From the sequence record OQ378934.1: a stretch of 64,000 bases of DNA, one strand, 5' to 3'. Below are positions 3,798 to 8,041 of this stretch, one piece after another. How positions within the stretch are numbered: the stretch's first letter is position 1; each line of letters starts with the position of its first letter. The translations under genes and the position numbers were made by a program. The notes beneath the pieces are model-generated. The model was not told where the DNA came from. It worked only from the letters and a program-made list of their open reading frames with translations, and searched no databases. The stretch comes from Escherichia phage LH2.

Positions 3798-4702
<905 letters not shown>

Positions 4703-4703
<1 letters not shown>

Positions 4704-4900
4704 TGGCGTGGCATCATGAAACTTGGTCTATTGTTATTGTAAATAGTGGTTTAGTTGGTACTAGTAATGGGCAATTTTGTGTATTCACTAGTGAAATCAG
4801 AGCTTGGGAGGAATGCCTTAAATTAAGAGAAAAGAATCCTGATGTTGAACTAACAGTAAAGAAAACTAAACTGCCTTTACCATGGAAAACTTATGAATAA
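4703..4900 (+). CDS. Hypothetical early protein, 65 aa
   Basis: ATG overlapping pseT stop (TAATG), SD gggag upstream; ORF-track start at 4673 is an in-frame upstream extension. Confidence 0.4.
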
Positions 4901-5093
4901 CATAGAAAAGATTTATCAACTTTGCGATAAAATTGAAAAAGAAAAGAAATATCTATTTTGTTTATGGCCTATTGTTGATGGAAGAATAGACTTAGATATT
5001 CTTGATTATGAAACAGAAGACATAGTAGATGGTTCAACTTTTGATAATGCGTTGGATGTTATTAATTGGCTTGAAGAAAATTATGTGGGGTGA
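4893..5093 (+). CDS. Hypothetical small acidic protein, 66 aa
   Basis: ORF overlapping neighbours by a few nt (coupled). Confidence 0.4.
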   Translation: MNNIEKIYQLCDKIEKEKKYLFCLWPIVDGRIDLDILDYETEDIVDGSTFDNALDVINWLEENYVG

Positions 5094-5095
5094 AT

Positions 5096-5371
5096 ATGTT
5101 TCCGACTTATTCTAAAATCGTAGAAGTAGTGTTTAGCCAAATTATCGCTAATAATATGTTTGAAAAGCTTGATAACGCAGCCGAGCTTCGAATTCATGCT
5201 CAAGTGACTCATGTATTGAACACTTTGCTTCCAGACCAGGTGGATTCTATTGCCATTACGCTGTATCCAGGTTCCGCGCATATCATTGTCGTATTTGGTC
5301 TTGATGCTGAGCTAGTCATCAAAGGCGATATTCGTTTTGAATCGCAGACATCAGAATTCAAAGCAATTTAA
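5096..5371 (+). CDS. Hypothetical protein, 91 aa
   Basis: ATG at 5096 preceded by gtgggg; ORF-track start at 5090 is a GTG. Confidence 0.4.
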   Translation: MFPTYSKIVEVVFSQIIANNMFEKLDNAAELRIHAQVTHVLNTLLPDQVDSIAITLYPGSAHIIVVFGLDAELVIKGDIRFESQTSEFKAI

Positions 5372-5373
5372 TA

Positions 5374-5403
5374 GTTTACTTTACGGTAGAGTTGTGATAT
5401 TAT
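5374..5403 (+). promoter_or_regulatory. T4 early-type promoter (GTTTAC, 18 nt spacer, TATTAT) with inverted repeat ggtagag/ctctacc
   Basis: gtttac 5374-5379, tattat 5398-5403; located in the 62 nt gap before the 5434 ORF. Confidence 0.45.
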
Positions 5404-5433
5404 AGCTCTACCAAAACAAACGAGGAAATTGAA

Positions 5434-5961
5434 ATGAGCGAATGGTTTGAAGAAGATAAGGTTTATCGCTTTAAAACTGGGTATAAAGATATTTTTAATG
5501 AAACTTGCGGGGCTAATAAACGAATTGCCCAGTTTATTGGGGAAAATTCATTTAAAGTAAAAATTGACCCTGCAAAGAATGTTATTAGCATTAAACGCGA
5601 AATTGATGACTGCTGGTATAAAGCTGTTGATGTAATGGGCGAATCTTATAAAGTTAGCCCGTTATTTTCAATTGCTTATATGTCAGAATATTCTTTTTTC
5701 GAAGAAGTTCAAAAAGATGATTCTGTCAGTAAATTTGAAATTAAAACTGATAAAGAAATTAAGTGGAAAGTAGTAGGTATTACTGGTTGTATGTTTTATA
5801 TCTATGCTCAAACTGATACGAAGGAAGAAGCTAAAAAGAAAGCTCTAGAATATCTTGAAGAGTATGAAGAAGGCCCGGTAATGATTACTCAAGATGCTGA
5901 ATTAGTTTCTGTCAAATTAGTTAAAAACGTTGAAAGTAAGGAGCTGGGATCAACATGCTAA
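5434..5961 (+). CDS. Hypothetical protein, 175 aa
   Basis: ORF with SD gagg upstream, preceded by early promoter. Confidence 0.5.
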   Translation: MSEWFEEDKVYRFKTGYKDIFNETCGANKRIAQFIGENSFKVKIDPAKNVISIKREIDDCWYKAVDVMGESYKVSPLFSIAYMSEYSFFEEVQKDDSVSKFEIKTDKEIKWKVVGITGCMFYIYAQTDTKEEAKKKALEYLEEYEEGPVMITQDAELVSVKLVKNVESKELGSTC

Positions 5962-6191
5962 GTGAAAAACCAATTACTGTTAAAGAATTCCAAGAAAAAG
6001 TTAAACTATTTGCACAGGAATTAGTAAATAAGGTTTCTGAACGATTTCCTGAAACATCGGTTCGTGTTATTACCGAAACTCCTCGTTCAGTATTAGTAAT
6101 TGTGAATCCAGGTGATGGCGATCAAATAACGCATCTTAAACTGGATTTTGATGGATTAGTTGAAGCACAAAGGGTGTATGGCGTACTATGA
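5955..6191 (+). CDS. Hypothetical protein, 78 aa
   Basis: Coupled ORF. Confidence 0.4.
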   Translation: MLSEKPITVKEFQEKVKLFAQELVNKVSERFPETSVRVITETPRSVLVIVNPGDGDQITHLKLDFDGLVEAQRVYGVL

Positions 6192-6526
6192 TGAATTTAA
6201 CTGATATAATTGATAATTGTCTTGAAAATGATACTGGTGATCATAGAGCGCTTGACTCTGAAACAGCAAAGTTCATTAGAATAACTTTAATGAATGACAC
6301 TCTAGTGAATAGTATTCATCCTTCTGTGTATGATGCTATTATTGTGACGAAGTATCCAGTTGAGCTTCACAAAAAGATGACTGGCGCAGTTTTTATTGAT
6401 AAGAAAAACCGCTTTAAAGATGGGCAGAATATAATTAGTTCTGTTATTAAAAGTATAACTAAACTTCGTCACGAAATTTATCGTGTTGAAACTGCTAAAT
6501 CTGCTTATCTGGTGATTATGAAATGA
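6188..6526 (+). CDS. Hypothetical protein, 112 aa
   Basis: Coupled ORF (ATGA overlaps on both sides). Confidence 0.4.
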   Translation: MMNLTDIIDNCLENDTGDHRALDSETAKFIRITLMNDTLVNSIHPSVYDAIIVTKYPVELHKKMTGAVFIDKKNRFKDGQNIISSVIKSITKLRHEIYRVETAKSAYLVIMK

Positions 6527-7104
6527 AAGCGAGTACAGTACTTCAAATTGCATATTTAGTATCGCAGGAATCAAAATGTTGCTCCTGGAAGGTAGGAGCA
6601 GTAATTGAAAAGAATGGACGTATTATTTCTACTGGGTATAATGGTTCCCCCGCAGGGGGTGTGAACTGTTGTGATTATGCTGCTGAGCAAGGTTGGTTGT
6701 TGAATAAGCCTAAACATACTATCATTCAAGGTCATAAGCCTGAATGCGTATCATTTGGTTTAACTGATCGTTTTGTCTTGGCGAAAGAACATCGTAGTGC
6801 TCACTCGGAATGGTCATCTAAAAATGAAATTCATGCTGAACTAAATGCAATTTTGTTTGCTGCACGAAATGGTTCTTCTATTGAAGGTGCTACTATGTAT
6901 GTAACACTTTCTCCTTGTCCGGATTGCGCAAAAGCGATAGCTCAATCTGGTATTAAAAAGCTAGTTTATTGTGAAACATATGATAAAAATAAACCTGGCT
7001 GGGATGATATTCTGCGAAATGCAGGTATTGAAGTGTTTAATGTTCCTAAGAAAAACTTGAATAAGTTAAACTGGGAAAATATCAACGAATTCTGTGGTGA
7101 ATAA
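6523..7104 (+). CDS. cd: dCMP deaminase, 193 aa
   Basis: Zinc-binding motifs HAELNAI and PCPDCAKA; length as T4 Cd. Confidence 0.9.
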   Translation: MKASTVLQIAYLVSQESKCCSWKVGAVIEKNGRIISTGYNGSPAGGVNCCDYAAEQGWLLNKPKHTIIQGHKPECVSFGLTDRFVLAKEHRSAHSEWSSKNEIHAELNAILFAARNGSSIEGATMYVTLSPCPDCAKAIAQSGIKKLVYCETYDKNKPGWDDILRNAGIEVFNVPKKNLNKLNWENINEFCGE

Positions 7105-7705: not shown

Positions 7706-8041
7706 ATGTCTGAAGTACAACAGCTACCAATTCGTGCTGTCGGTGAATATGTTATTTTAGTTTCTGAACCTGCGCAAGCCGGTGATGAAGAAGTTACAGA
7801 ATCAGGACTTATTATTGGTAAACGTGTCCAAGGTGAAGTTCCTGAACTGTGTGTAGTTCACTCTGTTGGTCCTGATGTTCCTGAAGGTTTCTGCGAAGTT
7901 GGTGATTTGACTTCTCTTCCAGTTGGTCAAATTCGAAACGTTCCTCATCCTTTTGTAGCTCTGGGTCTTAAGCAGCCAAAAGAAATTAAACAAAAATTCG
8001 TAACCTGTCACTATAAAGCTATTCCGTGTCTTTATAAGTGA
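7706..8041 (+). CDS. 31: Gp31 co-chaperonin (GroES-like), 111 aa
   Basis: [29 protein letters not shown]... matches T4 gp31; length 111 aa. Confidence 0.9.

Follow-up and report, generated by a model that had tools for sequence, protein, structure and literature searches.

What are the six small ORFs that lie between pseT and cd in Escherichia phage LH2, are they real genes, and do any of them act against the host? We considered these questions within a 64,000-nucleotide window of the phage sequence (OQ378934.1); the genome that carries the block is that of a Tequatrovirus (T4-type phage). The initial annotation of this DNA viewed such clusters in T-even phages as reservoirs of host-takeover and anti-defence proteins, which is a reasonable prior and not a result. 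The block itself is an ordinary one. It consists of already-known genes, five of them named since the T4 genome was annotated, and the analysis adds one modest new family assignment. It also supplies three things that the initial annotation missed, namely the T4 names of the five genes, the lack of the sixth from T4, and a relative of the sixth in the T4 protein GoF.

Organisation of the interval

The interval at 4703–6526 is filled by six plus-strand ORFs of 65 to 175 aa, all found where the initial annotation had placed them (Table 1; gene names follow T4). That annotation had also called the ORFs translationally coupled, which holds within each of two blocks but not for the six as one chain. 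There are two coupled runs, pseT–cd.5–cd.4–cd.3 and then 175-aa ORF–cd.2–cd.1–cd. Read from the sequence, pseT and cd.5 overlap by 1 nt at TAATG, cd.5 and cd.4 overlap by 8 nt, and cd.4 is followed after a 2-nt gap by cd.3. A spacer of 62 nt separates cd.3 from the 175-aa ORF, which has its own Shine-Dalgarno sequence (GAGGA, 7 nt upstream). In the second run, the 175-aa ORF overlaps cd.2 by 7 nt, and ATGA is found at each of the cd.2/cd.1 and cd.1/cd junctions.

The 62-nt spacer carries a T4-type early promoter, with GTTTAC at 5374–5379, a spacer of 17–18 nt, and a TG-extended TATTAT at 5398–5403. This internal promoter had been noted before and is present. Its support comes from complete identity to the annotated promoter of T4; a promoter scan of the region was by itself not above chance (13 sites against 18.9 expected). 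The second run, from the 175-aa ORF to cd, is additionally driven from here. A 12-bp hairpin is found at the same place, with a predicted RNA folding energy of −16.3 kcal/mol (z = −3.6) and an identical copy in T4, and it occurs only in RNA reading through from upstream. Rfam gave no match anywhere in 4500–6700, hairpin included.

Table 1. Features of the pseT–cd interval of phage LH2 and its flanking genes
Feature	Position (nt)	Strand	Product	Remarks
pseT	3798–4703	+	polynucleotide kinase/phosphatase	upstream flank; 98% aa identity to T4 PseT
cd.5 homologue	4703–4900	+	65 aa, pI 6.7	Pfam T4_Y13H, E=2e-32 (111 bits); phrog_2430
cd.4 homologue	4893–5093	+	66 aa, acidic, pI 4.05	phrog_2360, E=6e-39
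cd.3 homologue	5096–5371	+	91 aa from ATG (93 aa from GTG at 5090), pI 4.9	Pfam DUF7355, E=1e-32 (112 bits); phrog_1695
T4-type early (sigma-70) promoter	5374–5403	+		sequence shared at 100% identity with the early promoter annotated in the cd.3–cd.2 interval of T4
12-bp hairpin	5385–5412	+		overlaps the promoter spacer and −10 element; no U-tract
175-aa ORF (O4, RB32ORF214c type)	5434–5961	+	175 aa	absent from T4; probable GoF-like N-terminal domain and a distinct C-terminal domain
cd.2 homologue	5955–6191	+	78 aa	Pfam DUF7320 (117 bits); phrog_1504
cd.1 homologue	6188–6526	+	112 aa, pI 8.7	phrog_2063, E=1e-49
cd	6523–7104	+	dCMP deaminase	downstream flank; start overlaps the cd.1 stop (ATGA)

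Five known T4 genes

Five of the six ORFs are almost certainly the T4 genes cd.5, cd.4, cd.3, cd.2, and cd.1 (T4p222–T4p218), and real genes. Their products are 88–99% identical to the T4 proteins, and gene order, strand, the pseT and cd flanks, and the internal early promoter after cd.3 are all alike; the window differs from T4 in having an additional gene between this promoter and cd.2. Family matches of the ORFs in Pfam or PHROG lie at E about 1e-32 to 1e-55 (the Pfam cut-off used for T4_Y13H, DUF7355, and DUF7320 was 27 bits), with no Pfam match for cd.4 or cd.1. No paralogy was detected among the families of cd.1–cd.5, 31.1, 31.2, and RB69ORF227c in an all-against-all hhalign comparison. 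Two gene starts deserve comment. T4 cd.5 is annotated as 75 aa from an ATG at 4673, within pseT, whereas in the relatives MN01 and Merlin the gene begins at the pseT stop. In LH2, GGGAG lies 8 nt upstream of 4703, and the preferred reading of cd.5 is a 65-aa product starting at the ATG that overlaps the pseT stop, not the longer T4 form. The conserved cd.2 N-terminus, MLSEKPITV, is kept here; an additional G is present in the T4 reference, where the gene is annotated from a GTG. In cd.1, it is the C-terminal half that is conserved, with YDA...G.vF.DKK.RF.DG...YLVI in the alignment.

All six ORFs are genuine protein-coding early genes, and together they form an accessory block of this T4-type phage, expressed early and dispensable. 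In T4, early RNAs of cd.1–cd.5 have been reported and the proteins have been detected (PMC9697503 supplements). Since relatives conserve the ORFs and T4 translates five of them, the description of the run as small early genes stands. For LH2 itself, the 95–100% sequence identity of promoter and genes suggests that early transcription and translation take place as well. When cd.1–cd.5 were knocked down by CRISPRi in T4, fitness in the laboratory host was unchanged (PMC11879866 supplement).

This dispensability could be taken to mean that chance frames, or frames in decay, are among the ORFs. In keeping with such decay, constraint on cd.4 is relaxed among close relatives (dN/dS 0.43–0.96), and many genomes have the gene for the 175-aa protein deleted or cut short. 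However, dN/dS is low (0.00–0.16) in the other five ORFs, similar to pseT and cd; the values are 0.09–0.11 for cd.5, 0.01–0.09 for cd.3, 0.05–0.08 for the 175-aa ORF, and 0.06–0.16 for cd.1 (against T4 and MN01). The families are conserved across genera, with cd.4 homologues in Gaprivervirus, Mosigvirus, Dhakavirus, and Gelderlandvirus, and the coupling signals are intact. That any of the six is not a gene is scarcely credible on these data. For cd.1–cd.5, T4 proteomics rules it out.

Individual database records attach more specific functions to some of these genes. RefSeq NC_054907 names the T6 orthologue of Cd.3 a "toxin", which would perhaps be paired with a neighbouring gene. The label comes with no stated evidence, however, and the underlying T6 GenBank record has "DNA methylase" for the same gene, a conflict that suggests automated transfer. 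The gene is "conserved hypothetical" in T4 and hundreds of other records, and searches of Pfam, NCBIfam, and PADLOC matched it to no toxin family. Searching the literature by the gene names cd.3, cd.4, and cd.5 or by Pfam and UniProt identifiers found no relevant paper. We regard a toxin as highly unlikely. The labels "toxin", "olfactory receptor-like", "homing endonuclease", and "DNA methylase" in single GenBank or RefSeq records are unsupported in all the libraries searched. There is even less chance that cd.2 is a DinI-like modulator of RecA/UvsX filaments. The DinI family (PF06183) is similar in size, and a sub-threshold Pfam match covers cd.2 residues 16–48, a helix–strand segment (E=0.048), and recurs in half of the family (13 of 26 members, best E=0.0025). 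However, cd.2 scores 14.4 bits against a gathering cut-off of 24.2, and neither its predicted topology nor fold searches match DinI. The idea is largely refuted by the fold and can be dropped. Structure prediction with a fold search, which the initial annotation had suggested, was informative to this extent: the confident predicted model of cd.2 has one helix (9–30) packed on a four-stranded antiparallel sheet, a generic alpha+beta fold. The single-sequence AlphaFold2 model of the 175-aa ORF was unusable (pLDDT 37.6).

The 175-aa ORF and its probable relation to GoF

The sixth ORF consists of two domains, an N-terminal one at about residues 1–100 (nt 5434–5745) and a distinct C-terminal alpha/beta one at about residues 104–175. 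We consider it very probable from profile comparisons that this N-terminal domain and the one of T4 GoF are homologous, and that the protein is a member of the GoF/Frd.2/MotB.1 family. This Tevenvirinae family has a predicted LSm-like (SH3-like) beta-barrel, a bent antiparallel sheet of five strands, as its N-terminal fold (Kim et al. 2025, PMC12152347). When the clade of the 175-aa ORF was aligned with the GoF clade in hhalign, the match scored 95.8% (E=8e-9); the syntenic sub-clade alone scored 95.4% (E=2e-8), pairing its residues 1–105 with GoF 1–93, while all other family pairs scored at most 6.7%. A local iterative profile search from the 175-aa ORF also recovers T4 GoF. In the alignment, N-terminal motifs are common to both families, and a conserved N-terminal block, a linker of variable length, and a separate C-terminal block give the two-domain architecture of the GoF family.

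PHROG matches of the 175-aa protein (phrog_3710, 5804, and 622) also include the goF family, phrog_2980, a weak match at E=1.2e-3 that supports the link. Comparing the protein directly with GoF by BLASTP gave no significant result. The single T4 MotB.1 and partial Frd.2 sequences gave nothing significant in hmmsearch and hhalign, a null that weighs little, since the trio GoF/Frd.2/MotB.1 shows no conventional sequence similarity among its members (PMC12152347). With phmmer against 1.84 billion representatives, we found only near-identical fragments and one match to P0006 (Ig-like repeats), a repeat-protein artefact. A word-indexed homologue search with a family alignment gave only 10 proteins, which do not suffice to build a deep alignment. 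Weak Pfam matches to Imm40 and DUF4288 (E about 0.1) were taken as chance.

The likeness to GoF (ComC-alpha) extends to the kind of gene: both are early accessory genes of a non-essential type whose products have an N-terminal domain, a linker, and a differing C-terminal domain. The C-terminal domain of the 175-aa ORF is longer than that of GoF and different from it, and the loci differ, with goF adjoining cef and 39.2. In work on GoF, RNA was stabilised only by the D25Y mutant, with little effect of wild-type GoF and MotB.1 (PMC12152347). Residue D25 aligns with an Asn in the 175-aa ORF, in a loop that aligns weakly. Placing the ORF in the GoF family leads to a concrete assay, either of RNA stability or of growth on rho mutant hosts.

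The 175-aa ORF sits directly behind the early promoter, in the neighbourhood of pseT (RNA repair). About 60% of Tequatroviruses carry a gene in this slot. T4 has it cleanly empty, and LH2 differs from T4 here by an exact indel. Copies at least 95% identical to the ORF occur in 302 phage records, under the name RB32ORF214c in RB14 and RB32, and the proteins of RB14, RB32, T6, and ime09 are 96–100% identical to it. In Gaprivervirus and Dhakavirus, the slot holds distant homologues of only about 25% identity; the Gaprivervirus (VR7ORF232c-type) proteins and JS98 orf212 have the N-terminal domain and overall architecture in common with the 175-aa ORF. In Winklervirus, Moonvirus, Jiaodavirus, and Mosigvirus, the related copies are located elsewhere, close to genes 30.7/30.8. 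We argue that the ORF was probably lost in T4, because syntenic homologues occur in MN01 and JS98 and because T4 keeps its Shine-Dalgarno sequence and ATG, fused to cd.2. A partial loss is seen in Bas45, where a natural in-frame deletion removes residues 15–103 and leaves the C-terminal domain in frame. Nearly the whole GoF-like domain is missing there, so it is dispensable at least in Bas45.

Possible roles in infection

Hundreds of T4-like phage sequences contain the block with little change; T4, ime09, and T6 are among the phages that share its identity and synteny, and synteny with pseT and cd is kept in several genera. This conserved position could mean that the genes encode accessory subunits of the phage's nucleotide-metabolism machinery, or regulators of it. 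However, the content of the interval is freely swapped: RB69 lacks cd.5, cd.1, and the 175-aa ORF, T6 lacks cd.5 and cd.4, and in many Mosigviruses a DAHP synthase occupies the cd.1 slot. Relatives of the 175-aa ORF also stand at another locus in Winklervirus. Such swapping and relocation fit an insertion-tolerant early transcription unit over a functional module, and we find a role in nucleotide metabolism quite unlikely.

The initial annotation saw no recognisable enzymatic motifs in the run, and we agree, having found no significant enzymatic, defence, or solved-structure match in Pfam, NCBIfam, PADLOC, or PDB sequences. Nothing meaningful emerged when PDB sequences were searched with profiles of the cd.1, cd.2, cd.3, and O4/GoF alignments, and the PHROG categories of all six ORFs are "unknown function" bar the weak goF match. 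At E values up to 1, none of the six had a match in PADLOC, whose models describe defence, not counter-defence. One or more of the six could still be anti-defence or host-takeover inhibitors that are relevant only when the matching defence system or target is present. Early expression, small acidic non-enzymatic proteins, and dispensability in the laboratory host all suit this idea, as does strong variation in presence between genera and, within Tequatrovirus, of the 175-aa ORF and cd.5/cd.4. The neighbouring pseT itself counters a host anticodon nuclease. On the other side, none of the six resembles a characterised inhibitor in Pfam, PHROGs, or PDB, and where the main text of the HIDEN-SEQ study names T4 genes that are conditionally essential, it mentions no cd.x gene. 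A Mosigvirus AV110 screen of 45 early genes yielded six growth-inhibitory proteins, and the cd homologues, judged by gene position, apparently fall outside the six. We regard inhibitors in the block as possible but doubtful, and as compatible with the explanation preferred here.

That explanation, a pseT–cd accessory-gene block of Tequatrovirus, is the best for the locus as a whole and somewhat probable in the form proposed. The products have no transmembrane segments and acidic pI; small, soluble, mostly acidic, and apparently devoid of a catalytic signature, they would most likely work not as enzymes but by binding macromolecules of the host or the phage early in infection, and they may matter only in certain hosts or under certain conditions. 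For the 175-aa protein, an RNA-level mechanism was chosen in view of its GoF-homologous N-terminal domain. Tentatively, it might modulate RNA stability or processing post-transcriptionally, or modulate a host factor that handles RNA, and its own C-terminal domain would confer the specificity. More speculatively, and with rather little likelihood, it could serve on particular hosts to protect phage transcripts or tRNA from an RNase-type host defence or to retune the decay of mRNA, and one among cd.4, cd.3, and cd.2 could conditionally inhibit a host factor. If the 175-aa protein were an RNA-directed accessory factor, its presence or absence among Tequatroviruses would reflect host-range selection. 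Near-identical phages carry natural full-length, domain-deleted, and empty alleles of the gene, which are material for a comparison of host range and fitness.

Two runs of conserved early genes between pseT and cd

This T4-type phage is presented in an orientation opposite to the T4 map. The six plus-strand ORFs placed by the initial annotation in 4703–6526 fill that interval with the coordinates claimed for them. Only short overlapping ORFs of at most 90 aa lie on the minus strand, and GC skew is positive throughout the region, consistent with coding on the plus strand only. The 2-kb stretch around the block is 97–98% identical to many Tequatrovirus genomes, the closest being Yersinia phage phiD1 (98.1%). 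Annotated ime09 and T4 records carry five of the ORFs, cd.5, cd.4, cd.3, cd.2 and cd.1, and their matched families are all annotated "unknown function". The block is therefore already annotated, and near-unchanged copies are found in hundreds of genomes. Translational coupling, proposed for all six ORFs, holds within two runs; the 62 nt between cd.3 and the 175-aa ORF separate these, so the six do not form a single chain.

Features of the pseT–cd interval and of related loci (plain positions refer to the window, L-numbers to fetched comparison loci)
Feature	Position	Details
pseT	3798–4703	upstream flank of block
pseT/cd.5 junction		TAATG, 1-nt overlap
cd.5		Pfam T4_Y13H
cd.5/cd.4 junction		8-nt overlap
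cd.4	4893–5093	PHROG 2360
cd.4/cd.3 junction		2-nt gap
cd.3		Pfam DUF7355
Early promoter	5374–5403	GTTTAC, 17–18 nt spacer, TG-extended TATTAT; in cd.3/175-aa ORF spacer
Hairpin	5385–5412	12 bp, dG -16.3 kcal/mol, z -3.6; overlaps promoter spacer and -10 element
Shine-Dalgarno, 175-aa ORF		GAGGA, 7 nt upstream of ATG 5434
175-aa ORF	5434–5961 (+)	
175-aa ORF/cd.2 junction		7-nt overlap
cd.2		Pfam DUF7320
cd.2/cd.1 and cd.1/cd junctions		ATGA each
cd.1		PHROG 2063
cd	6523–7104	downstream flank of block
gene 31	7706–8041	
DAHP synthase (phospho-2-dehydro-3-deoxyheptonate aldolase)	L011:3509–4501, L012:3509–4501, L022:4498–5490	
30.8–30.7 relatives of 175-aa protein	L014:2023–3025, L015:2023–3034, L009:7395–8388, L008:7673–8161, L012:7562–8176	

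The opposite outcome, ORFs neither conserved nor translated, did not hold: the genes are conserved, and the T4 versions of cd.1–cd.5 have been detected both as early transcripts and as proteins (PMC9697503). All six are genuine, and the original observation is correct. Pairwise dN/dS against T4, ime09, T6, MN01 (Gaprivervirus) and Mosigvirus homologues was 0.00–0.16 for cd.5, cd.3, cd.2 and the 175-aa ORF. The same range held for cd.1 against T4, T6 and MN01, its outlier of 1.3 being a noisy value from one very close pair that differs by hardly any substitutions. For pseT and cd, the enzymes on either side, values were 0.04–0.15. Among close relatives, the least constrained of the six is cd.4 (0.43 against T4, 0.96 against ime09); its C-terminus has diverged from that in ime09 (L001:1792–1986), and the alignment covers only 50 of the 66 residues (86% identity). 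The T4 annotation gives cd.5 75 aa, with a start at an ATG within pseT (window equivalent 4673–4703). The ATG at 4703, which has GGGAG ahead of it and shares bases with the pseT stop, is also the start in the homologues from Gaprivervirus and Moonvirus, and it is where the Pfam model for cd.5 starts.

The internal early promoter was also borne out, being base for base the T4 sequence annotated as an early promoter between cd.3 and cd.2; a consensus promoter scan alone yielded no more in this region than chance. The overlapping hairpin is identical in T4, where the record notes that its 14-nt loop was formerly reported in inverted orientation. Having no U-tract, it was rejected as an intrinsic terminator and would form only in read-through RNA, where it could serve in processing or stabilisation. 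Rfam gave no family match in the region.

The 175-aa ORF as a probable GoF relative

What this analysis adds to existing knowledge is solely the assignment of a non-T4 gene, the 175-aa ORF, to the GoF/LSm-like family. A phmmer search against 1.84 billion representatives returned near-identical fragments and one repeat artefact only, direct BLASTP against GoF was not significant, and neither were comparisons with single MotB.1 or Frd.2 sequences. A PHROG scan returned three further families, including goF at E=1.2e-3, and an iterative profile search across all fetched loci recruited T4 GoF. When a 10-sequence clade of the 175-aa ORF, with GoF excluded, was compared by hhalign with five GoF sequences from four genera, residues 1–63 aligned with 95.8% probability (E=8e-9). 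With the three syntenic proteins alone, residues 1–105 matched GoF 1–93 at 95.4%, and every other pair among ten neighbourhood families reached at most 6.7%. The two groups share the N-terminal pattern MSxxFxExKxYxF...N..IA.yIG..PFEV...E..yFxEv, followed by a variable linker and an unrelated C-terminal alpha/beta block. [quoted passage not shown] 2025, PMC12152347), a layout that the 175-aa ORF fits. A single-sequence structure model was unusable. Most simply, the 175-aa ORF is a further member of this family, with a putative LSm-like fold, and may already lie within unnamed sub-branches of the PSI-BLAST tree of Kim et al. (PMC12152347).

Gain, loss and exchange in the interval

The 175-aa ORF is found in 302 phage records, each with at least 95% protein identity, including T6, RB14 (labelled RB32ORF214c), RB32, RB27, RB33 and ime09. 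The T4 junction sequence occurs in 498 records, contiguous where the site is empty and split where it is occupied; approximately 60% of Tequatroviruses thus carry the gene. T4 has nothing at this position: the promoter, Shine-Dalgarno sequence and ATG are fused to the start of cd.2 (ATG TTG CTA AGT), and in empty-site phages cd.2 is translated from the ribosome-binding site and ATG of the 175-aa ORF as a 79-aa MLLSEKP... form (protein P0007, 119 member sequences). Since distant homologues occupy the same slot by synteny in two sister genera (Gaprivervirus MN01, 180 aa; Dhakavirus JS98, orf212) and cd.2 uses these borrowed signals, loss in the T4 lineage is more likely than gain in the window. 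Further relatives lie near 30.7/30.8 in Moonvirus and Mosigvirus and, as adjacent pairs, in Winklervirus and Jiaodavirus; relocation or duplication has carried the GoF-like family between two hyperplastic regions of T4-like genomes. In Bas45 (PaulHMueller, L003:2501–2758), an in-frame deletion of residues 15–103 leaves an 85-aa protein of 14 N-terminal residues joined to the C-terminal domain, so the GoF-like domain can be lost with the reading frame intact. Its annotation as a "putative homing endonuclease" was rejected, as no search backs the label.

As a whole, the interval behaves like an early transcription unit that tolerates insertions. T6 lacks cd.5 and cd.4, with pseT running straight into cd.3 (L006:3009–3074), and keeps the 175-aa gene, the reverse of T4. 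In RB69, cd.5, cd.1 and the 175-aa ORF are all missing and another small ORF (ORF227c) is present, and Gaprivervirus has seven ORFs between pseT and cd. In many Mosigviruses (NHEP36, KAW3E185, AV110 and others), the cd.1 position directly upstream of cd is taken by a 330-aa DAHP synthase, an auxiliary aromatic-amino-acid pathway gene within an early transcription unit.

What the products might do

In agreement with the claim that enzymatic motifs are lacking, none of the six ORFs matched defence-system models, NCBIfam models or, by sequence, solved structures, and cross-genus alignment profiles of cd.1, cd.2 and cd.3 found no matches in the PDB. All six proteins are predicted to be soluble; cd.1 is basic (pI 8.7), and the other five range from acidic to near neutral (pI 4.05–6.7). 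CRISPRi-ART knock-downs of T4 cd.1–cd.5, which are listed as unknown genes, were all "Not Fit", that is, fitness in the laboratory host was unaffected (PMC11879866 supplements). The two coupled early runs encode real, laboratory-dispensable proteins with no catalytic signature, which probably act as small binding or regulatory proteins of conditional value.

For the 175-aa ORF, analogy with GoF raises the possibility of a post-transcriptional, RNA-linked role, which we regard as tentative. [quoted passage not shown] The initial annotation saw such clusters in T-even phages as reservoirs of anti-defence or host-takeover factors. That one or more of the genes may act in this way is speculative, compatible with an RNA-linked role and about equally likely. 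When 45 early proteins of Mosigvirus AV110 were screened, six inhibited growth: gp94, 135, 204, 208, 214 and 263. The AV110 pseT–cd block lies at 35–38 kb of its record, at approximately gene 50–60, so by gene position, and assuming that they were included in the screen, its cd.2, cd.3 and cd.4 homologues are apparently not among the inhibitors. The T6 Cd.3 orthologue is labelled "toxin" in RefSeq (NC_054907, L021:1236–1511) and "DNA methylase" in GenBank (L006:3074–3349); Pfam, NCBIfam, PADLOC and literature searches supported neither label.

A sub-threshold Pfam DinI match appeared in 13 of 26 cd.2 family members. The confident AlphaFold2 model from the 26-sequence alignment (pLDDT 87.6, pTM 0.75) predicts a single helix and then a four-strand meander; its best Foldseek match in the PDB had E=0.2, and BFVD returned DUF7320 relatives only, as far as Aeromonas phages. 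A DinI-like identity was rejected on these grounds, and the predicted fold is too generic to point to a function. Near the cd.2 5' end, the T4 reference (L002 ~4225–4272) has an extra G relative to window 5955–5990 (AAAGGAATTCC vs AAAGAATTCC). It disrupts the N-terminus MLSEKPITV/MLLSEKPITV, conserved in every relative, and T4 cd.2 is consequently annotated from an internal GTG, with 76 aa. The extra G is either a laboratory-strain mutation or an old sequencing error.
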